In this document: piece after piece, positions 4,492-48,942 of the stretch | How positions within the stretch are numbered: the first letter of the stretch is position 1 | How the letters are laid out: each line of letters starts with the position of its first letter | NCBI GenBank assembly: GCA_016787225.1 | Contig: JAEUUY010000026.1 | Location: 172,414-236,413, forward strand | Source of the DNA: Chitinophagales bacterium | GTDB taxonomy: Bacteria > Bacteroidota > Bacteroidia > Chitinophagales > JADJOU01 | Reading direction: 5' to 3' | DNA: 64,000 nt | Notes under the pieces: model-generated | What the model was told of the DNA's origin: nothing | The model's input: only the letters and a program-made list of their open reading frames with translations | Databases searched by the model: none | Made by a program: the position numbers and the translations under genes

Positions 4492-5442
4492 TTACAATAC
4501 CGCCTTGGCGATATTGATGACACCATCCGATTTACTCATAGTATAGTAATGAAGCGAGGGTACACCAGCAGCTTTTAATTCTTTACTCTGCATGATACAC
4601 CATTCTTCTCCTACTTTTTTGACATCTGCTTTGGTTTTACATTTTTCTACTTCTTTGGTCAATTCGTCGGGAATCTCCAAGAAAAATCTCGATGGAATAG
4701 ACTTCAATTGATACTTAGCGTCAATTGGCTTCAATCCTGGTATGATAGGCACATGGATACCTTCTTTTCTGCATCGGGCTACAAAATCAAAATACTTTTT
4801 ATTATCAAAAAACATCTGTGTGATAATATAGTCTGCACCGAGATCTACTTTATTTTTTAACCACTTGAGATCCGTGTTCATATTCGGAGCTTCGAAGTGT
4901 TTTTCAGGATAACCAGCTACTCCTATGCAAAAATCTGTTTCCATCTCATTGAGTGTTTCCTCGTGTAGAAATTTGCCTCTATTCATATTGGATACTTGTT
5001 CCACTAATTCACTGGCAAATTTATGCTGATTGGTTTTACCGATTTGCAGGCTATTCTTTTCATCGCCTTTCAAAACCATGACATTTTCTATACCTTGATA
5101 GCAAAGGGAGAAGAGCGCATCTTCTGTCTCTTCTTTACTGAACCCTACACAAACAAGATGTGGCACAGTCTCTACATTATACTTGTACGAAATCGCCGCA
5201 CAAATTCCTACCGTACCTGGTCTCGGTCTAAGTGGCGCCTCTTCTATCAAGCCATCAGGTCTGCGCTTATAAATCATTTCTTCAGGGTGATAGGTAACGT
5301 CTACAAAGGCTGGATTAAACTCCATCAAAGGATTCAACACATCGAAAAGATCATTGATTTTTTTGCCTTTCTGAGGTGGTAAAATTTCGATTGAAAAAAG
5401 GGTTTTTCCCTTGGCTGCCGCTAATTTATCTGTAACTTTCAT
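4492..5442 (-). CDS. metF: 5,10-methylenetetrahydrofolate reductase
   Basis: VAGYPEKHFEA, ITQMFFDNKKYFDF, IIPGLKP and a HYYTMSK C-terminal pattern match the MetF family. Confidence 0.8.
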   Translation of the reverse strand: MKVTDKLAAAKGKTLFSIEILPPQKGKKINDLFDVLNPLMEFNPAFVDVTYHPEEMIYKRRPDGLIEEAPLRPRPGTVGICAAISYKYNVETVPHLVCVGFSKEETEDALFSLCYQGIENVMVLKGDEKNSLQIGKTNQHKFASELVEQVSNMNRGKFLHEETLNEMETDFCIGVAGYPEKHFEAPNMNTDLKWLKNKVDLGADYIITQMFFDNKKYFDFVARCRKEGIHVPIIPGLKPIDAKYQLKSIPSRFFLEIPDELTKEVEKCKTKADVKKVGEEWCIMQSKELKAAGVPSLHYYTMSKSDGVINIAKAVL

Positions 5443-5516: not shown

Positions 5517-7355
5517 TTAAGTAGCATTCAACTTATCAAGAACAAAATACATATCCAATTTTAGTCCGTTTTTCACCTCGATGACACCTCTTTTCTCGCA
5601 TTTGAAATAAGGTTCAATATAGTTAAAGGTTGATTGGCTTATATTTATTTTACCAGGAGAACTGCTCGACTCCATTCTTGCGGCAACATTCACAGTATCA
5701 CCCCATATATCATAAGCGTATTTATGAGTACCCACAACTCCTGAGACGATACTGCCTGAATGAATACCTATACGAAACTCAAATGCATACCCAAATTTTT
5801 GCTTGACTACTGCATGCGACTCCGTAACGAACTGAATGATATCATGAGCTGCCGAAACCAGAGACCATGCATGATTTGGAGAATTATTCAACCCGCTAAC
5901 ACATAGATAGGCATCGCCAATGGTTTTTATCTTTTCAATATCATTATAGTTTGAAACAATAGAATCAAATTTAGCAAAATAGAAGTCGAGAATATTGATA
6001 AGTATTTCAGGCTCTAGGCTAGTCGCCAAATTTGTAAATTCCTTGACATCGCAGAACATAACTGTCACAGCTTCGTGTCGCTGAGGAATAGCTTTGCCAT
6101 ACATTTTAAGTTGTTTTACAGTCTTAGCTGGTAGAATATTATGAATCAATGCTTCAGACTTTTGTCTTTCCCTTCTAATAAATATGGATAAAAATCCAAT
6201 AACTAGAAACAAGCCACCAAGCACCCCAGCAGCTATTATGGCCTTCTTGTTGTTTTCTTTTTGACGAACAATTGTATCATTGAGTTGTTTCCGCTCTATT
6301 TCATTCCTATATTTAGAATAGGTCAAAGCTATCTGAGAAGTAATATCCAAGCCTGTAGCTGCATCTTTCAATTCTTGAACCTCCAGTAAGTACTGATGTG
6401 CTTCTTTGATCTTGCCCATTTTGTAATAGATGTCATGTAATAACTGAGCAATAGCTATCTTGTTTCCAGCAATATCATTTGATCCTTTTGAGTTAGAATA
6501 TTGATAGGCCTTTAAACCGTAGTCAAGTGCCTGCGTCAATTTGTTCTCTAAATAGTTGATTTTTGAATACAACGTATAAGCAACGGCAATAGCTGCTGGT
6601 TCATTCCTTGTTTTGTAGTAATTCAAGGATTTAGCTAATAAATTCTCTGCTTTTTTATATTCTTGCTTATTCACAAGCACCTTAGCTATTCCCTGTTCTA
6701 TTTCATGCTCTCTATCCGAGTTAGTATTTTTTTTAACTAAATCTAAAGCAAAGAGAAAATAACGCATTGCTGAATCATATTGTTTTAATTCATAATAACT
6801 CAAACCGCTTAAATATAATGGCACACTACGAAATGATTCCTCGCCTTTCCACCTATTTTTAATTGCTATCTGAAAATATTGAATGGCATCATCATACTTA
6901 TGATTGGCGTAGAAAATAATTCCGAGATAGTTATAAGACTTGGAGATATATTCTTTATTCCCAATTATTTCTGCATATTTCAATGATTCAAAAAAGAATT
7001 TAACAGCCCGGACATCATCCTTTTTCCATACATGTTCTATCTTCCCCAGGCGATAATAAGACATTAATAAACCGTTATAGTCTTTTTTTGATTTAGAATA
7101 TTCTATTAAGTCTAATAAAATTTTCTCTCCTAGGGCGATAGAATCAAATGATTCAGCATAATAAGTATCGTATAAGTCAAGACTATGAATGATAAAATTA
7201 TCTTTTTCTTTTACCGCTGTCTTATTTCTATCTATTTCTATATTTCCATAGCTAGATTGAAATGACAATAATATAACTATTGGAAGATAAATCATAAGAT
7301 TTCGATGCATGAATCTGAGTCTAAAGTATAGAGATAGGTAAATTTCCGTTACCAA
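5517..7355 (-). CDS. TPR-repeat sensor protein with one TM helix and a C-terminal class III adenylate/guanylate cyclase domain. True start is probably the MHRNLMIYLPIV signal peptide near 7310.
   Basis: Multiple TPR-like repeats (YYxxG/LGxIxxxxG), TM segment AIIAAGVLGGLFLVIGFL, then cyclase motifs VTVMFCDVKEFT and KTIGDAYLCVSGL. Confidence 0.8.
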   Translation of the reverse strand: MVTEIYLSLYFRLRFMHRNLMIYLPIVILLSFQSSYGNIEIDRNKTAVKEKDNFIIHSLDLYDTYYAESFDSIALGEKILLDLIEYSKSKKDYNGLLMSYYRLGKIEHVWKKDDVRAVKFFFESLKYAEIIGNKEYISKSYNYLGIIFYANHKYDDAIQYFQIAIKNRWKGEESFRSVPLYLSGLSYYELKQYDSAMRYFLFALDLVKKNTNSDREHEIEQGIAKVLVNKQEYKKAENLLAKSLNYYKTRNEPAAIAVAYTLYSKINYLENKLTQALDYGLKAYQYSNSKGSNDIAGNKIAIAQLLHDIYYKMGKIKEAHQYLLEVQELKDAATGLDITSQIALTYSKYRNEIERKQLNDTIVRQKENNKKAIIAAGVLGGLFLVIGFLSIFIRRERQKSEALIHNILPAKTVKQLKMYGKAIPQRHEAVTVMFCDVKEFTNLATSLEPEILINILDFYFAKFDSIVSNYNDIEKIKTIGDAYLCVSGLNNSPNHAWSLVSAAHDIIQFVTESHAVVKQKFGYAFEFRIGIHSGSIVSGVVGTHKYAYDIWGDTVNVAARMESSSSPGKINISQSTFNYIEPYFKCEKRGVIEVKNGLKLDMYFVLDKLNAT

Positions 7356-18096: not shown

Positions 18097-18331
18097 TAAT
18101 ACAGCTAATTTTTAAAATGAGTTACACCATTTTAAATCCGCTAGAGATATAAACATAATGCCTAGGAAATATTTGATAGTCTTCTGAATGAGAGAGTAAC
18201 GGCGTTAAAATAAATTGCAGGATGGTAGAGAAAGATTTATCTTTGACAAAAAGTAGTCTAGCTAAGCCGCTCATTCCTTTGTTCAGAAGGCTACCGTGCG
18301 TTAGCATCAATTTTAAAGCGACACATCTCAA

Positions 18332-30662: not shown

Positions 30663-30684
30663 ACAAGATAGCCTGAAAAAATTT

Positions 30685-30810
30685 ATACCGTAAACGTATT
30701 AGTAATAGTCCAATGACGCATGGCTCATTGCACTAAACAAATACAGCTACGGCATTTACCATAGCAAGGTTTTAAAATGGGTTGGACCATTTTAACACCG
30801 CTATTGGTAT
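30685..30810 (+). repeat. Copy 1 of a ~126 nt dispersed repeat (MITE/sRNA-like); internal hairpin AAAATGG-GTTGG-ACCATTTT
   Basis: ~94% identical over ~126 nt to 46910..47035 by hand alignment (8 mismatches). Confidence 0.8.
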
Positions 30811-30815
30811 TACAC

Positions 30816-30850
30816 AAAAAAGCCCCACATTTCTGTGGGGCTCAAAAAAA
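30816..30850 (-). terminator. Rho-independent terminator for the flotillin gene (hairpin GCCCCACA-TTTC-TGTGGGGC followed by a T-run on the minus strand)
   Basis: Perfect 8 bp GC-rich stem at 30822-30829/30834-30841, flanked by A-runs (T-runs on the minus strand). Confidence 0.7.
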
Positions 30851-30859
30851 ATATAAAGT

Positions 30860-33142
30860 TTATTCTTGATTTGTGCTCGATTGAGAATAATTCTTCCCTG
30901 TCAATTTTTCCAAGAGTAGAACTCCCATCATATTTTCCAAATTGCCTCCACCAGCACCACCGCCACTGATAAGCGTTTCAGGAATGAGCTTCATTTGGTT
31001 TTGAGCTATTTGCTCTATGATTTTGAGCTGACCGAAGTTATCCTTGCCCATAGCATCCACTTGTAGTTTGTAAGATTCTGCTGTGGACTTACCTTTTTCG
31101 AGGATTATACCAGCTTCTGCGAAACCTGTTTTCTGAATAGCCTCTGCATCCGCACTAGCTTTAAACTTAATTCCTTCTGCGTTGGCAGCTGCTTGTAGTT
31201 TGACTGCTTCTGCTTCACCTTCTGCTTTACGTATGGCAGCATCTGCTAGGTTTTTCGATATATCCACACCTCTTTCAGACTCTACCACTTGCTTTTGCAT
31301 GTCGGCCTGTGCAGTAGCATTTTCGAGTCGCTTACGCTCTTCTTGTGCTTCCATTTGGGTTTTAAAGGTGGCTTTTTCTTGCGTTGCGATTTGTCTATCC
31401 GTCACTGTTTTGGTCAGTTCTACAGGCAGTACCACATCGGCTATCATGGTATCCTTGCTTTCAATATGATGAATCTTCAATACGTTTTGAATATGCTCCT
31501 TCGCCCTTTGCTGAATCTCCGAACGCTTGGTATAGAGCTCCAAGGCTTGTACTGCCTGCGCTGCATTCCTAAAGTGTGAACTAATGGCTGGCTCCAATAC
31601 CTGTGAAATCATATTGTCTACCGAACCTAGGTTTGCGACTACCTTAGGTGCATCGGCCATGGCTATATGAATAATCACGCGAACATCCATATTGACATTA
31701 AAGGCATCTGCAGTACGAAGGGTAATGGTTTTCAAATTGGCATCAAAGCGATGTGCACTGGATTCATCATTAGCCCAGCTCAGTAATATCTGTGTGGTAG
31801 GGACAATATCTACCTTGCAAATTTCTAAGTTGAGGGCATGTTTACCCGGACCCAAAGGATCTCTCCATATGCCTCGCAATCCATTTTCTACGATCTTGGC
31901 ATTTACATTGATATCAGAAGTATCCGTTCCTTCTTCACCTACGAAGTTAGTTACTACAGCACATTCACCTATTTGTACCTCTACCATTTTTTGCTTTTTT
32001 ACCTGAGCAAACCATGGATTGATAGCATAAGCACCGGCGCGCAATACGGGAATCTGAAGACCTTTTTGACCACCATTTTTTAAGAAAGCATCGGTATCTT
32101 GGAAATTTTGATGTATTCCCAGTTCTACTTCATCAGCGGCTATCTTACTAGGATCTGAAATTGGTTTACCTTCCAGAATTGTCACGATACCTACTTCATC
32201 CGATTCAATTTTTGTCCATGGCATAGGTTCACTGATTTTGAACAGATTGGTATTGATACGATAGGTACCTGGCATCAAGTGTTGAATTTGGCGACCTTTC
32301 TGACCTCCATTTTGAATAAACACTTCGCCTTTTTCAAAATTAGAATGACCTTCTACCTTATCTGCTAATAATCGTCCATCTGGGAGCTGAGTTCCATCCA
32401 TAGCCGTCACGAGGCAGATATGTCCACCGGGCACTACGGTAGCTTTTTTGACCTCTACGAGAAATAAGTCCGTATTGATACGATACATACCCGGGGTGAG
32501 AATCGCTATTTGCGGACCTTTCTGACCACCGTTTTTGAGAAATTGTTCTCCATTTTGATAAAGATTACAGTCCACTGGATTTGCAAAAATTCTACCCACT
32601 TCCATAGGCTCACCTGCTATAGCTTCTACCATGGCTATTTCATCATCTCCTACCGATACCGCATTGACTACTTTTACATTGAACAAGTGTGGATTGATTC
32701 TATGTTCGCCCGGAGGAATGATACTCACCTGAGGCCCTTTCTGACCACCATTGATAAGAAATTTTTCTCCATCTTGATAGAAATCAGAATCCACCGATGT
32801 AGCCATAAACTGCCCTTGAGGAATAGGACGACCTGTGATAGCATAGACGATACCCACTTGATTATTTTTTATCACCAAATATTTATGCTTAGTAGGTTTA
32901 AAAATAAAGGGAATTAGAAAATGTAATCCTGGTCCCAAAATACGAGCCTGCACACCTACCTCGCCAGCGAGTGCTACGGTACGCCCATCGGGCATTTCCT
33001 TGCCTATCCATCTGCGCTCGAGGGTGGCGAGTTCGTCACCGCCTACATTGACGATAGAATGGTACAAAACAAAAAGAACTAAAAATACTACGATTAGAAT
33101 AGCTAATGTAGAGCCTGAAAATAAGAATGCTAGTATTCCCAT
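30860..33142 (-). CDS. Flotillin-family (SPFH/band-7) membrane protein with four N-terminal ~80 aa tandem repeats
   Basis: N-terminal TM; repeats each carrying NGGQKG(P/R/L)Q...PGxYRIN; SPFH core; C-terminal Ala/Glu-rich coiled coil AEGEAEAVKLQAAANAEGIKFKA and a GGGAGGG tail. Composition clearly more GC-rich than the neighbours. Confidence 0.8.
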   Translation of the reverse strand: MGILAFLFSGSTLAILIVVFLVLFVLYHSIVNVGGDELATLERRWIGKEMPDGRTVALAGEVGVQARILGPGLHFLIPFIFKPTKHKYLVIKNNQVGIVYAITGRPIPQGQFMATSVDSDFYQDGEKFLINGGQKGPQVSIIPPGEHRINPHLFNVKVVNAVSVGDDEIAMVEAIAGEPMEVGRIFANPVDCNLYQNGEQFLKNGGQKGPQIAILTPGMYRINTDLFLVEVKKATVVPGGHICLVTAMDGTQLPDGRLLADKVEGHSNFEKGEVFIQNGGQKGRQIQHLMPGTYRINTNLFKISEPMPWTKIESDEVGIVTILEGKPISDPSKIAADEVELGIHQNFQDTDAFLKNGGQKGLQIPVLRAGAYAINPWFAQVKKQKMVEVQIGECAVVTNFVGEEGTDTSDINVNAKIVENGLRGIWRDPLGPGKHALNLEICKVDIVPTTQILLSWANDESSAHRFDANLKTITLRTADAFNVNMDVRVIIHIAMADAPKVVANLGSVDNMISQVLEPAISSHFRNAAQAVQALELYTKRSEIQQRAKEHIQNVLKIHHIESKDTMIADVVLPVELTKTVTDRQIATQEKATFKTQMEAQEERKRLENATAQADMQKQVVESERGVDISKNLADAAIRKAEGEAEAVKLQAAANAEGIKFKASADAEAIQKTGFAEAGIILEKGKSTAESYKLQVDAMGKDNFGQLKIIEQIAQNQMKLIPETLISGGGAGGGNLENMMGVLLLEKLTGKNYSQSSTNQE

Positions 33143-40402: not shown

Positions 40403-43400
40403 TTGATTAATAACACAAAGATAGTAGGAATGAATAAATTCTCTTCAATAAAATACTTTTTTATCTTATTTTTTGTTCCGTTTTTCTCTTATGGGCAATT
40501 GTTTACGCTCATGCCTAAGGAATCTACAGGAATAGACTTTGCGAATCACCTCGTGGAATCTCGCTACCTTAATATATTCACTTACGAGTATTTATTTAAT
40601 GGTGCTGGAACTTGTATAGGTGACATCAATAATGATGGACTCAATGATATTTTCTTTGCAGGCAATATGATGGCTAACAAGCTCTATCTCAATAAAGGCA
40701 ATTTAAAATTTGAGGATATCAGTAAATCCGCATCTATTGATAAAGGGGATGGTTTTAATACCGGTGCCTGCATGATGGACGTGAATGGCGATGGCTGGCT
40801 CGATATTTATGTTTGTAAATCTGCAATAGCGGATCCTAAATACCGAACTCATAACTTATATATCAATAATAAAAATAATACTTTTACTGACCGTATTACT
40901 GAAATGGGACTTGCTGATAGTTCTTATAGCACCATGTCCTATTTTGCCGATTTTGACAATGACGGCGATTTAGATTTATTCCTTCTTAATCACCCTTCTG
41001 CTATGGGTGAAGCTAAGAAAATTGTACTGACCTATGACAAAGATGGGAAGTTAGTGACGAAAAAACCGGAGACCTATCAATTCATATCTGATAGATTTTT
41101 TGTCAATGAAAATGGCAAGTTTGTAGATAAGTCCGAACAAGCAGGGATTCAAGATAATTTTTTCGGGTTGAGTGCAGTCATAGCTGATTTCAATTACGAT
41201 GGTTTTTTTGATATCTTCGTAGCCAATGACTATACGGGCTATGACAGACTTTTTATCAATAATAAAAACAATACATTTACAGATTCAGGTGAACACTATC
41301 TCCCTCACATCAGTTATAATTCAATGGGGTCAGATTTTGCAGATATGGATAATGATGGGCTCGATGACTTGCTAGTTGTAGATATGCTTCCAGAAGAAAA
41401 CTATAGACAAAAGCAGTTTAGACAAACGATGGAGTATGACCAATATGCTAAACTCATAAAGCACAACTACCGTTCACAATTCGTAAAAAATGTATATCAG
41501 AAGCGCATACCCAATAAGCGATTTGCAGATATAGCACACACGGTAGGTCTCGCAAATACAGACTGGAGCTGGGCACCCTTAATGGCTGATTTTGACAATA
41601 ATGGACACAAAGATTTGTATATTTCCAATGGTTATTACCATGATTTTACGGATCAGGATTTTATGAAATTCAAACTAGATTCCATAAAAAAAGAAGCTTT
41701 GAAAGAAGATAATTTGGAAAAAGTAAGAAATCTATTGGCCAATGTACCAACAGTAAGGGTCAATAATTACTTTTTTTCAAATGAGGGCAACCTCAATCTC
41801 GTTCGCAATCCTAAAGGAACAGGGCTGGAATACCCATCTGTTAGTAATAGTGCCGCCTATGGTGACTTAGATAATGATGGTGATTTAGAAATCGTGGTGA
41901 GTAATATCAATCAAGAATGTTTTGTGTTCAGAAATAATTTAATGGAAAATAAAGGTGGTAACTTTATTCGAGTGAAATTAAATTCAAAAAAATCACCCAA
42001 CTCAATTTATCATGCACGAATATTTGCTGAAACCCCTGATGGTAACAAGCAATATTATCGCCACTACCCGATACGCGGATTTATGGGAAGCCATGAACAC
42101 TTTACCCATATAGGGATAGGGAAAAATACAGAAGCTAAAATCAAGGTAGAATTTCTCAATAAGAAAACTTATTTAGAAATTCAAGCTAAAGCCAATGAAG
42201 TTCTCAATATCGACATTGATGAGGCGCAGTATCTACCTATTCCACCTGCTGCTCCGCTGCAGTATAACTTTGTAGACAAAACCGCTAGTTCAAAAATAGA
42301 ACACCTCTGTAGGGATAATGATTATATTGATTACAAACTAGAACCTCTAATTCCACGCAAATACTCCTATGAAGGCCCGACCATTTCTGTAGGGGACATC
42401 AATGGAGATAAATTAGAAGATTTTTTTGTAGGTGGTGCCAAAGATATTCTGGGAGGATTTTTTATTCAAAATACAGATGGGACATTTATAAAGCGCTCTT
42501 ATGAATCCTTCGTAAAAGATAAAATTTATGAAGACTGCGGTTCCGCATTTCTAGATTTTGACAAAGATGGCGATTTGGATATTATCGTCACCTCCGGTGG
42601 AAATGACTTTCCGAATGAACCTAAAAAGTATCCGGTGAGGCTATATGTTAATAAAGACAATAATTTTATAAGGGCAGACAGCACTATATTTCCAAATATC
42701 TATACCAGCTCAAAAGCTATAGCTATTGAGGATTACAACAAAGATGGTTTCCCAGATGTATTTATTGGAGGCATGATTGTTCCTGGTCATTATGGTCGCA
42801 AACCTATGAGCTATTTATTAAATAATATCAATGGGAAATTTGCGATAGATGAATTTTCTAAAAAGAATGAAAAGCTACAGATGATCAATGATGCCAAATG
42901 GATAGACATTGACCGCGATGGGAATAAAGACCTCCTTGTGGTGGGCGAATGGACGGCACCTATGGTCTATAGAAATATCAATGGGCGACTTGAAAATCAA
43001 AACCTATCCCTTGGCAATTTTAGAGGTTGGTGGCGATCGATCACTCTCGCTGATATGAATGGCGATGGCATAGAAGATATCATATTAGGCAATTATGGTA
43101 CCAATAGCCGATATAAAGGTGATAATAATTATCCTCTGACTGCATTAGTCCATGATTTTGACAAAAATGGTTCTACGGATGTAGTCTTATCCACCTATAT
43201 TGATGGAGTAAGCAGACCGATCATGATTCGTGACAATGTTCTGGACCAAATGCCATTTCTTAAGAAGCGATTCAATCGCTATGAAAAATATTCAAAAGCG
43301 ACGACAAATGATCTTTTCACTCCAGAAGAAGTCAAGGGTGCAGATACATTGATTGCCAATTTCATGAGTAGTATGATTATTTTTAATCTACCAAACGGAA

Positions 43401-45355: not shown

Positions 45356-46753
45356 TTATTTTTTCTCCAATAATACGATACACTCAATGTGTATCGTATG
45401 GGGAAACATATCTACAGGTTGAACTAGTTTTATTCGATAATTTTCTGTTAAGACCTTTAAATCATTCGCCATGGTTTGGGGGTTGCAGCTGACATAAACT
45501 ATTTTAGGGCAGCCAGAATTGGTTAGTTCATTGACCACATCAGGATGCATTCCTGCACGTGGAGGATCTGTAATAATGACATCTGGACTTCCTATCTTGG
45601 ATATAAACTCAGACTTAAATATATCCTTGATATCGGCAGCATAGTAATCACAATTTTCCATGCCATTAATTTTGGCATTCATTCGTGCATCTACTATGGC
45701 CTCTTCTACGAGTTCGATTCCTACTATCTTTTTAGCTTTTTCAGCAAGATAGATGCCAATACTTCCTACTCCACAATATAAATCATAAATCACTTGCCCC
45801 TCTTTGATTTCTGCCAATTCTCCTACTAATTCATATAATTGAATGCATTGCTCCGTATTGGTTTGAAAAAATGATTTTGGCGTAATTCTAAACTTCTTTT
45901 CCTTGAGGTATTCAAATATAAAATCTTGACCATGATATACATGAAAGTCGAGATCATAAATTGTGTTATTTGATTTTTTATTGATTGTATATTGCAAAGA
46001 GATAATTTCAGGGAACTTCTGCTTAATAGCTTCTAATAGCTTCATAAAATTATCTTCCATTTCATACACCTGTATACATATCATCCACTCATTCTTCACA
46101 TTATTTCGTACTAAAATATTTCGAAGACAACCTTTCTTCTGCATGATATCGTAGAAGGAGAGCTCTAATTGAAATGCTTGGTCTCGGATAAAATTTCTAA
46201 TTTCGTTGTTTAATTCGGGCATATGAAAACATTCATGAATATCCAGAACCTTATCAAACATTCCTACCAGATGAAATCCAATTCCATTCCTATTGAAGGT
46301 GATATCAGAGTGCAACTCTTCATTGGTAAGCCATCGTCTATTGCTGACGGCATAGTCAAGTTTATTCCGATAATGCTCCGTTTTTTCACAGCCTAAGATG
46401 GGTAAAATATTCAGACTTTTAAACCCACCAATGCGCTCCAGTGCATTGATAACCACGCCTTGTTTCCACTGAAGCTGTGTAGCATAGTCTACATGCTGAG
46501 TTTTACAACCACCGCATTGCTCATAATGCTTACAATATGGCTTCATGCGACTTTTCGAAGGGGTTATTACATTTAAAATTTTACCAGTCTCAAAATTTTT
46601 ATGACTTTTCTTGACTTGAATTTTTACAATATCTCCCGTCACTCCTCCTTCTACAAATATTACTTTGCCATCTAGTTTTACTATACCTTTTCCTTCAGAA
46701 GATATGTCTTCCACTGTAACATTTTCTAGTTCATAAAATTTAGTCTTAGCCAA
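45356..46753 (-). CDS. rlmD: 23S rRNA (uracil-5-)-methyltransferase RlmD/RumA family (TRAM + Fe-S + SAM MTase)
   Basis: TRAM domain N-terminus, Cys cluster CKHYEQCGGCKTQH, SAM motif DLYCGVGSIGIYLA, C-terminal catalytic VDMFPHTIHIECI. Confidence 0.85.
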   Translation of the reverse strand: MAKTKFYELENVTVEDISSEGKGIVKLDGKVIFVEGGVTGDIVKIQVKKSHKNFETGKILNVITPSKSRMKPYCKHYEQCGGCKTQHVDYATQLQWKQGVVINALERIGGFKSLNILPILGCEKTEHYRNKLDYAVSNRRWLTNEELHSDITFNRNGIGFHLVGMFDKVLDIHECFHMPELNNEIRNFIRDQAFQLELSFYDIMQKKGCLRNILVRNNVKNEWMICIQVYEMEDNFMKLLEAIKQKFPEIISLQYTINKKSNNTIYDLDFHVYHGQDFIFEYLKEKKFRITPKSFFQTNTEQCIQLYELVGELAEIKEGQVIYDLYCGVGSIGIYLAEKAKKIVGIELVEEAIVDARMNAKINGMENCDYYAADIKDIFKSEFISKIGSPDVIITDPPRAGMHPDVVNELTNSGCPKIVYVSCNPQTMANDLKVLTENYRIKLVQPVDMFPHTIHIECIVLLEKK

Positions 46754-46909
46754 ATCAGTTATTTTTATTTCGACGCCAAAAGTACAAAGATAATTGAGTA
46801 AATTTTTTTTTATTAATTCCCTCTATGATAAGTCCCCAATAATATCATTCTTACTTTAGGGCTTGCTGAATAACGTCAAAACAGTTGAATGATATAGATT
46901 TATAAAGTA

Positions 46910-47035
46910 ATACCGTAAGCGTATTAGTAATAGTCCAATGTCGCATGGCTCATTGCACTAAACAAATACAGATACGGCATTTACCATAGCAAGGTTTTAA
47001 AATGGGTTGGAACATTTTAAAACTGCTATTGGCAT
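46910..47035 (+). repeat. Copy 2 of the ~126 nt dispersed repeat, embedded in a ~285 bp segment bounded by a perfect 16 bp inverted repeat
   Basis: Matches 30685..30810; flanked by GGGCTTGCTGAATAAC (46859-46874) and GTTATTCAGCAAGCCC (47159-47174). Confidence 0.8.
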
Positions 47036-47178
47036 AAGTATGCATTTTAACCCAAAAATATTTGACTACTCAGAAACACACCAACTACTTCGCCATCTGC
47101 ACCTCGCAGTATTATTATACAGCGTCGGCTTGATGGCTCGTATTTGGCGCATTTCTGAGTTATTCAGCAAGCCCTACT

Positions 47179-48144
47179 TTACCTCAAATACTTCACATCT
47201 GTCAAAGTTTGCAGAAATGCTGAGATTTCCTTAATTTCTTCCTCCGTTATTATACTGGGAGGTTTATAATCATAGGTCTGACGTTTTTGTGAAACATGAT
47301 AACGAATTGCATCTTCTAAATCATCAATTCGTCCATCATGAAAATAGGGAGCAGTGATAGCTATATTTCGAAGTGTTGGTGTTTTGAATCGTCCTCGATC
47401 AATAGGAATCAAAGTATTAGCAAATACTCCTAGCCTACCCTTAATAGAATCTTCTAAGCCAAGATTATAATGCTCCGAGTCGGTAAATAATGGGGAAGTA
47501 TGACATTTCTGGCATTTCCCTTTGCCAAAAAATAACCGCATTCCATTCTTTTCCGTTTGTGATAGAATACTAGAGTCTTTACTAGCAAGAAAACGATCGA
47601 ATCTCGAATGAAATGCTATAAGTGATTTCATATAGGCTGCCAATGCCCAGGTGATGGTTCTCCTGTTGAGGGGGCGTCCATATGTATTCATTGAAAGCTT
47701 TTGATATTCTGTAATATATCTAAATTTTTCTTCTAGCTCTATAAAACTTGTATTCATCTCATTCGTATCCAAGAGGGGTATGATAGGTTGTATCTCGATA
47801 CTATGTGAACCTCGGTCAAACATAAACGAGTTCAGAAATCCAACATTTAACAAGGTAGATGAATTGTGTTTCGAGAATCTACCCTCGAATCCCTGACTAA
47901 TTTTCTTTCCATCGGTAAATGCCAGTTCAGGCAAATGGCAGGTCGCACAAGAAACTTTATTATTCTTTGAAAGACGAGTATCAAAGAACAATTTTTCACC
48001 TAGCTCTATAGTTTCTTTCCTTACTGTATCAAAAAAAGTTCTATTTTTTTGTGGGAAATAGCTAGGATAGGTAATGAAAGGTTTTTTATCCTGACAAGAA
48101 TTAATGAAAATAAAAACTAAAGAATATACAAGATGAACTCTCAC
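47179..48144 (-). CDS. Di-haem cytochrome c peroxidase (CCP/MauG/MbnH family)
   Basis: Two CxxCH haem motifs (CATCH, CQKCH); conserved PTLRNIAITAPYFHDG segment. Confidence 0.85.
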   Translation of the reverse strand: MRVHLVYSLVFIFINSCQDKKPFITYPSYFPQKNRTFFDTVRKETIELGEKLFFDTRLSKNNKVSCATCHLPELAFTDGKKISQGFEGRFSKHNSSTLLNVGFLNSFMFDRGSHSIEIQPIIPLLDTNEMNTSFIELEEKFRYITEYQKLSMNTYGRPLNRRTITWALAAYMKSLIAFHSRFDRFLASKDSSILSQTEKNGMRLFFGKGKCQKCHTSPLFTDSEHYNLGLEDSIKGRLGVFANTLIPIDRGRFKTPTLRNIAITAPYFHDGRIDDLEDAIRYHVSQKRQTYDYKPPSIITEEEIKEISAFLQTLTDVKYLR

Positions 48145-48153
48145 GAACAGAGT

Positions 48154-48942
48154 TTACTCTAGACTAAAAGCCTTAGAGAAATTGAGTGCTACCTTATCTG
48201 TCAGTGGTCCATCTGAAGCATCGCCATGAGCTTGAGTTTCGCTATTTTTATAGTCTACATTAGATCCAACTGTAGGATAAAATATTTTCTCAATATTTAA
48301 ATGCAATCCATAGGTCTTAGGATTATTGACATCTAAAACAATGCTCACTGGCAGATTAGCCTGATACTTATAAGTCAAACCTGTATGGAAAGAATAAGGT
48401 ATCACGTTTCCTGCATTAGTTTTTATATTTCCTTCTATAACAACAAACCTATACTTAGACCCCATAGTCCAATACATATTTTTCCATGAACTTAAAGGAT
48501 GAGCCTCTGGATAGTTATTCGGATCGAGACTATTTGTCAAATCTCCCAACCCACACAAAAATGTAATAGTATCAATATTAGTAGGAAGAGACGCGCTTTT
48601 AAACACTAACTTATTCGAAACATTCTTTGTCGAAAATAAAAACACGGTATCGAGTTTTGCAGATTTCCCAGTTTTGTCTTTAAATCCGATACCCTGCATA
48701 TAAAAATCGAGTCTACTTATTAAAATAGAGTCACCATTTTTTAAATGAAAATATTGATTGACCTTTGCTTGAGTTCCATTAATTTGGGGTTTTACCTCCA
48801 TACTAATCTCCTGAGCTGTTCCTGAATTATTAGGCGCTGGATCCTTAGAAGTACATGAAACAAGGAAACCTAGGATAGCAGTAAAAAAAACGAAAAGTCT
48901 CATACTATAAGTTTTAATAATACAAAGGTAGTAAATAATCAA
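48154..48942 (-). CDS. Lipoprotein, possibly an MbnP-family partner of the downstream di-haem peroxidase; likely start MRLFVFFTAILGFLVSC near 48903
   Basis: Lipobox LVSC; ~250 aa Trp-containing beta-rich protein immediately upstream of, and co-directional with, the CCP-like gene (MbnP-MbnH arrangement). Family assignment is an inference. Confidence 0.45.
   Translation of the reverse strand: MIIYYLCIIKTYSMRLFVFFTAILGFLVSCTSKDPAPNNSGTAQEISMEVKPQINGTQAKVNQYFHLKNGDSILISRLDFYMQGIGFKDKTGKSAKLDTVFLFSTKNVSNKLVFKSASLPTNIDTITFLCGLGDLTNSLDPNNYPEAHPLSSWKNMYWTMGSKYRFVVIEGNIKTNAGNVIPYSFHTGLTYKYQANLPVSIVLDVNNPKTYGLHLNIEKIFYPTVGSNVDYKNSETQAHGDASDGPLTDKVALNFSKAFSLE

Follow-up and report, generated by a model that had tools for sequence, protein, structure and literature searches.

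The spacer between two minus-strand genes, a peroxidase gene and rlmD, very probably carries two unrelated non-autonomous DNA transposons (MITEs), one nested within the other. Both lie in a 64-kb stretch of DNA that was analyzed as a whole (64,000 nucleotides) and is referred to here as the window. An earlier note on this DNA had seen a terminator hairpin split by a mobile element; it did not include the two target-site duplications (TSDs) described below, namely the TACTTTA that flanks the arms of the outer element and the TAA or TTA that flanks the inner one. The window proteins are NCBI entries MBL7790196-MBL7790208, and the genes around the spacer are arranged as follows.

45356-46753, minus strand: RlmD-type TRAM/m5U methyltransferase gene (rlmD).
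47179-48144, minus strand: di-haem cytochrome c peroxidase/MauG-family ORF (MbnH/MauG-like), with its stop codon at 47179-47181.
48154-48942: MbnP-family gene, which precedes the peroxidase gene and forms an MbnP/MbnH-like pair with it.

The MbnP-peroxidase pair and the genes for an OmpA-family and an Rv0495c-family (PF11307) protein are kept together in two relatives (L046 and L047). A candidate Bacteroidota-type promoter of rlmD, predicted at TACTTTTG, would fall outside the insertion.

The outer element comprises the following features, in which TIR denotes a terminal inverted repeat and IS a full-length insertion sequence.

46852-46858, no strand: left TSD, TACTTTA; the identical 7-mer abuts both outer TIRs.
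46859-46874, plus strand: left TIR, GGGCTTGCTGAATAAC; the same sequence terminates 202-bp and 192-bp MITEs and 1.65-kb IS5-family IS on metagenome contigs.
46859-47174, no strand: outer IS5-family MITE, 316 bp, or 189 bp minus the nested element and one TAA; non-coding.
47153-47174, minus strand: right TIR, GGGCTTGCTGAATAAC plus TCAGAA on this strand, corresponding to the end that precedes the transposase gene in full-length IS.
47175-47181, no strand: right TSD, TACTTTA, which holds the TAA peroxidase stop codon (47179-47181, minus strand).

The TIRs are perfect over 16 bp: positions 47159-47174 are the exact reverse complement of GGGCTTGCTGAATAAC (46859-46874), and no further match to GGGCTTGCTGAATAAC was detected in the window when up to 3 mismatches were allowed. 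Both this symmetry and the position of the right arm, 4 nt from the stop codon of the peroxidase/MauG-family ORF, had been described correctly before. The peroxidase stop codon survives the outer insertion because it lies inside the duplicated heptamer TACTTTA, and the probability that this repeat would flank both arms by chance is estimated at ~1e-4 at local composition. An alternative in which the TA belongs to the TIR and the TSD is 2-3 bp was considered and rejected, since a TANN(N)TA target is needed anyway and a 6-7-bp duplication is simpler.

To place these ends in a family, the pattern GGGCTTGCTGAATAAC(N0-1)TCARAA was matched exactly against metagenome sequences, where it identified 24 loci. 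Paired TIRs bound thirteen elements of 202 bp, one of 192 bp, and three of 1649-1671 bp. Together with the window copy, these make 18 paired elements, of which 14 are flanked by a 6-bp TANNTA duplication, two (the window copy being one) by a 7-bp TANNNTA duplication, and two, both full-length copies, retain only TA as a duplication. The three long elements (L020, L029, and L040; 1649-1671 bp) are full-length and have the same 15-16-bp ends. Among them, the scan for transposase ORFs covered L020; the 514-aa product of this 1671-bp element reaches 455 bits with the NCBIfam model NF033578 for IS5 family transposases (cut-off, 275) and also matches the Pfam domains DDE_Tnp_1_2 and DUF772. Because a 41% identical transposase at another locus (L022) has the same terminus, this end is characteristic of an entire clade. 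At the DNA level, the closest annotated transposase, ~65% identical, is labeled 'IS5-like element ISAcma17 family transposase', and no relevant literature was found for the TIR string. We identify the 16-bp arms as TIRs of a transposable element of the IS5 family.

The overlap of the outer element with this family elsewhere is confined to the terminal ~22-25 bp, as is usual for MITEs. A second copy of the 189-bp element was found neither in the 64-kb window nor in ~130 kb of related loci, and a tblastn search of the window and the related loci with the L020 transposase gave no match to an IS5 transposase of the source lineage. Within the outer MITE, an imperfect inverted repeat was noted at window positions 47059-47079 and 47139-47159 (ACTCAGAAACACACCAACTAC and GTATTTGGCGCATTTCTGAGT); its left arm resembles CTCAGAAACAC, which adjoins the TIR in the 202-bp family, a hint that the outer MITE may be composite or have been rearranged.

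In relatives L046 and L047, whose peroxidase is 75% identical at the protein level, the MbnP-peroxidase-RlmD order is the same, while the spacer is 61-65 bp long and contains neither TIR nor MITE; at this distance, the exact empty heptamer is not alignable. The window spacer measures 425 bp, or 102 bp after subtraction of the 323 bp taken up by the insertion and its TSD. The outer element has features of an IS5-family-derived MITE: the TIRs of a full-length IS, a TSD like that of the family, and a site that is empty in relatives.

The interpretation given earlier, by which the two 16-nt arms once paired as the stem of an intrinsic terminator of the peroxidase gene, into whose loop a mobile element inserted, is exceedingly improbable. 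As in a Rho-independent terminator, a perfect 16-bp inverted repeat starts 4 nt past a stop codon, and the first copy of the inner element, elsewhere in the window, lies 7 nt from a strong terminator-like hairpin. However, the same 16-22 nt end many MITEs and IS5-family IS in unrelated contigs, and the arms are flanked by a 7-bp direct repeat. Unlike those of a terminator, the arms form an AT-rich stem and stand 284 bp apart; the inner MITE with its TSD explains just 127 bp of that distance, leaving 157 bp. There is no T-run, as TAAAGTAAGAATG follows on the sense strand, and a terminator scan of 46600-47300 returned no terminator-like site. Finally, L046 and L047 lack a palindrome of the type GGGCTTGCTGAATAAC-short loop-GTTATTCAGCAAGCCC after the peroxidase gene.

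Having identified the arms as transposon ends, we turn to the inner element, for which the window contains two copies and one fragment.

30683-30685: left TTA TSD of copy 1.
30686-30809, plus strand: inner MITE copy 1, with 3 differences from the consensus, between the stop codon of a 310-aa ORF (30662) and a bidirectional terminator-like hairpin (~30817-30850).
30810-30812: right TTA TSD of copy 1.
46908-46910: left TAA TSD of copy 2.
46911-47034, plus strand: inner MITE copy 2, with 4 differences from the family consensus, nested in the outer MITE and containing two hairpins.
47035-47037: right TAA TSD of copy 2.
18110-18143, plus strand: 34-nt hairpin located just past a stop codon, matching hairpin 2 of the inner MITE at 30/34 positions.

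The dispersed repeat previously described as a recurring module of ~126 nt is real: positions 30679-30810 and 46904-47035 are 93% identical over 132 nt, and the chance expectation for a 21-mer of the repeat in the window is 0.00. The element proper, however, is 124 bp long (30686-30809 and 46911-47034). It runs from TACCGTAAGCG to CGCTATTGGTA, with ends TACC…GGTA and sharp boundaries in the 19 copies that align in register. Imperfectly inverted ends, which had also been proposed, are present (17/26 positions match in the consensus between TACCGTAAGCG and TACCAATAGCG, the reverse complement of the right end), but GTATTAGTAATAG, which had been taken for the left end, occupies element positions 11-23 and so lies inside the element. 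The reported hairpin AAAATGG-GTTGG-ACCATTTT was confirmed, including the single mismatch in the stem of copy 2. The motif TACC(G/A)TA(A)GC occurs at the left end, at internal position 72, and, inverted, at the right end, with a degenerate inverted copy at ~60-69; the inner element therefore consists of two hairpin units in tandem. It contains no ORF of 40 aa or more and is non-coding. The fragment at 18110-18143 aligned with a score of 48, compared with a best score of 28 among 300 shuffles, and may be either a relic copy or a free-standing related unit.

Two other sets of repeats in the window, four ~54-nt units spaced ~220-234 nt apart at 32052-32780 (in-frame in a 760-aa SPFH/Band-7 ORF) and four FG-GAP-like GATTTTGACAATGACGG units at 40946-42582 (in-frame in a 1098-aa FG-GAP/ASPIC gene), are protein repeats rather than mobile DNA.

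All 16 complete copies of the inner element have matching TTA or TAA on both sides, which constitutes a 3-bp TWA TSD; were the middle base independent on the two sides, agreement in 16/16 copies would have an estimated probability of ~1.5e-5. Outside TWA, only a mild A/T preference was observed, and insertions occur in both orientations at TTA/TAA. A 2-bp TA duplication of the IS630-like type was rejected, as no consistent boundary gives TA on both sides. The proposal that the module targets terminator loops fails on the same comparison: TTA/TAA is the only invariant target, and just one of 16 empty sites is a hairpin loop. In that site (L012), as reconstructed, TATAGATTT and AAATCTATA pair around a loop that contains the TAA. 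Copy 1 does adjoin a strong terminator hairpin, as had been noted, and sits beside it, not inside. As a separate observation, ATAGATT(T/C)A…A(G/C)TAA was seen 12-20 nt to the left of the MITE at three independent insertion sites (window 46894-46910; L012 ~7315-7335; and the left flanks in L002/L006/L013); it may reflect a target preference that extends beyond TWA, or it may belong to another small repeat.

The two subterminal hairpins, the weak terminal inverted repeats, and a size near that of REP/PATE elements would also fit a hairpin element of the single-strand IS200/IS605 type ('PATE'/REP-like), for which a Y1 HUH transposase would take the place of a DDE enzyme. IS200/IS605-type elements make no target duplication and insert in a single orientation beside a specific tetra- or pentanucleotide, whereas a 3-bp duplication accompanies 16/16 copies here, with the middle base co-varying on both sides, and insertion at TTA/TAA takes place in both orientations. 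We consider this origin very unlikely. With its small size, lack of coding capacity, constant TSD, imperfect TIRs, and dispersed copies, the inner element is best described as a MITE; in this respect the earlier description of a MITE-like insertion, with the module as a small non-autonomous mobile element, is borne out by the TSDs and the dispersed copies.

The copy number of the inner MITE extends well beyond the two copies first noticed. An exact-match scan for its 21-mer GGCATTTACCATAGCAAGGTT across 185,579 species genomes (one genome per species) matched one assembly, the metagenome-assembled genome (MAG) Sphingobacteriales bacterium CoA8_V48 (JAJTHM01), 17 times on 13 contigs; the window is not among the loci of this MAG. 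CoA8_V48 thus harbors at least 17 near-identical copies, whose flanks are unrelated. Among the 14 complete MAG copies, eight show no difference from the consensus and the others differ from it at 1-7 positions, compared with 3 and 4 for the window copies. This degree of identity points to recent amplification. Most copies are intergenic, often just past gene ends, although two may interrupt ORFs.

Several searches for the source of transposition were made. A regular-expression search of related sequence for larger elements with inner-MITE ends found none, as all TWATACC(R)(W)A(W)GC ends belong to 124-bp copies, and no autonomous partner was found in ~190 kb of related sequence. Self-BLAST for long repeats revealed no IS-sized repeat among the related loci. 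On the MITE-rich contig L006, ORFs inspected by eye were MurA-like, ATPase, and DUF45-like, with none resembling a transposase. The MITE consensus gave only a chance-level 25-nt match among plasmid records and no match among phage records, and two MITE patterns had no match in viral contigs. No relevant literature was found under the MAG name CoA8_V48.

Other features of CoA8_V48 were recorded alongside these searches. In the L006 copy at 4795-4918, the 6-nt loop of hairpin 2 is exactly inverted (GTTGGA to TCCAAC, element positions 96-101) on an unchanged stem, which looks like a hairpin-loop flip through intrastrand template switching or recombination. A second repeat family of ~230 nt, which starts with gtgctatactcctctga… and contains a CCTCTGAGTC/GACTCAGAGG hairpin, adjoins several MITE copies (L002 1-358; L006 1-358, 4799-5128, and 6997-7242), and 177-nt tandem units occupy L006 194-583.

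The inner element folds as two hairpins, with energies of -36 to -51 kcal/mol on both strands and z-scores of -4.0 to -7.8 relative to shuffled sequences. The strand antisense to the consensus folds more stably and is the one co-transcribed with the peroxidase gene and rlmD. These very stable folds, the frequent location of copies in intergenic DNA directly after gene ends, and the position of copy 1 between a stop codon and a terminator, probably in a 3′ UTR, would be compatible with a module that transposition dispersed but that is now retained for a role at the RNA level, as a functional structured RNA or a cis-regulatory element, for example a 3′-UTR stabilizer, a terminator or insulator, or an sRNA. 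On the other hand, a search of the whole window against Rfam 15 at the gathering threshold returned no match, so that the module belongs to no known ncRNA family. At E≤10, the best sub-threshold match at the locus was to a plant miRNA model, with 26.5 bits where the threshold is 90; this match reflects no more than the presence of a hairpin. Near-identity among the copies leaves no covariation to examine, and the few substitutions seen disrupt pairs instead of restoring them; in the L011 copy (6576-6699), for instance, one predicted pair has both partners, G5 and C65, replaced by A, which leaves an A·A mismatch. Copies face either way with respect to their neighboring ORFs, two of them apparently disrupt ORFs, and the perfect TSDs, like the identity among copies, indicate that the spread was recent and selfish. 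A maintained RNA-level function is therefore unlikely, and the structured sRNA suggested earlier has gained no positive evidence.

A broader proposal would make the 124-bp element the founder of an undescribed bacterial MITE family, built of tandem hairpin units with their own TACC inverted ends, targeting TWA, now active in uncultured Chitinophagales/Sphingobacteriales, and moved by a transposase not yet linked to the element, with its antisense hairpins possibly co-opted as 3′-UTR, terminator, or insulator modules; this combination of claims is unlikely to hold.

The relative age of the two insertions in the peroxidase-rlmD spacer was addressed by comparison with closer relatives. The inner MITE arrived second, because its own intact TSD lies inside the outer element. 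The same nested pair is present in a strain whose peroxidase is 99% identical (L043-45), which indicates that both insertions are older than that split. This strain has an SNP in the outer TIR (AATGAC), so the TIR is not being conserved, and its inner copy agrees with the consensus at two positions where the window copy does not. No empty site was found at a nucleotide-alignable distance, as all strain-level relatives and contigs carry both insertions; at the copy-1 locus, synteny is lost in relative L050. As reconstructed, the empty sites read …GAGGTAAAGTAAGAATG… and, inside the outer element, …TTATAAAGTAAGTATGC….

Short-read assemblies break within these elements. Logan contigs identical to the window stop at 46936, and those of sister strains run 53 and 61 nt into copies of the MITE before stopping. 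Each break falls exactly 30 nt beyond the last copy-specific SNP, as expected of a repeat in a k=31 graph. Window-identical Logan contigs from three samples (L016, L017, and L018) stop at 47097, inside the outer MITE, where no repeat or SNP was seen that accounts for the stop; positions 47097-47126 may recur elsewhere in that genome.

The preferred reading of two nested MITEs entails two steps. In the first, for which the anatomy, the family comparison, and the empty sites in relatives provide the basis, a ~189-bp IS5-family derivative inserted into a TACTTTA that overlaps the peroxidase stop codon, duplicating the heptamer on both sides; the enzyme, acting in trans, was presumably a DDE transposase of the IS5 family similar to the 514-aa protein of the full-length elements with the same ends. 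In the second, based on the anatomy and ~19 copies, the 124-bp MITE, from a different family, entered a TAA inside the first element and duplicated it. Copy 1 (30686-30809) represents an independent insertion at TTA, between a gene end and its terminator. The inner MITE was presumably also moved in trans, by a DDE transposase cutting TWA with a 3-bp stagger, whose putative family is suggested by the TSD. Staggered 3-bp cuts at TWA are typical of IS5/PIF-Harbinger-type ('Tourist-like') elements, and IS3- and IS30-family enzymes likewise make 3-bp duplications. The strong hairpins of the inner MITE are probably a by-product of its palindromic architecture and not a selected RNA function.

Tourist-like/PIF-Harbinger MITEs are eukaryotic families, and their bacterial counterparts would be IS5-family subgroups with 3-bp duplications. 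The inner element resembles Tourist-like/PIF-Harbinger-IS5 MITEs in its 3-bp TWA TSD, small size, AT-richness, imperfect TIRs, and many copies. In contrast, its termini, TACC…GGTA, are unlike the G-rich ends usually quoted for IS5-family elements, and the likeness to Tourist-like elements is one of TSD and anatomy. Hairpin-forming MITEs of bacteria include Correia/NEMIS in Neisseria, ERIC/IRU in enterobacteria, and RUP in Streptococcus pneumoniae. The inner element shares with Correia, ERIC, and RUP a length in the ~100-150 bp range, intergenic location, dozens of copies, strong RNA/DNA hairpins, a short AT-rich TSD, and frequent co-transcription with neighboring genes. It differs from them in that they duplicate TA instead of TWA and form one long TIR-to-TIR hairpin, whereas it consists of two separate hairpin units with their own TACC inverted ends; no sequence similarity to Correia/NEMIS, ERIC/IRU, or RUP was detected, as neither Rfam nor the plasmid and phage records gave more than a chance-level match.

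For the outer element, the closest parallel within Bacteroidota is provided by MITE464/PgRS, MITE239, and BrickBuilt of Porphyromonas gingivalis, which are IS5-family MITE derivatives (PMC4596501). There, IS5-derived MITEs share their TIRs with resident IS and nest mutually, BrickBuilt_18 encompassing a MITE239 copy (PMC4596501). The outer element and its family are likewise short, non-coding, and multi-copy, with the TIRs of a full-length IS5-family IS, short TSDs, and nesting. Unlike in P. gingivalis, the outer TIR is GGGCTTGCTGAATAAC rather than GAGACC… or ACGTCAG…, the outer TSD is 6-7 bp with TA at both ends, and the autonomous partners come from other metagenomes, with none seen in the searched DNA of the source organism.

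In summary, the nested pair is ordinary selfish DNA, neither a split terminator nor a known RNA gene, and neither element changes the current understanding of mobile DNA. The locus serves as a caution that a perfect palindrome past a stop codon can be a pair of transposon ends instead of a terminator, and that a highly structured dispersed repeat can be a MITE instead of an sRNA. A widespread clade of IS5-family elements, MITEs included, is defined by the terminus GGGCTTGCTGAATAAC(TCAGAA) in combination with a TANN(N)TA target. The 124-bp element seems to be both undescribed and recently active. Since many of its copies are 100% identical and its 21-mer occurs in one of 185,579 species genomes, it is useful as a lineage marker, supporting its use in following strain dynamics and its recognition as a known cause of assembly breaks in an uncultured Bacteroidota lineage.
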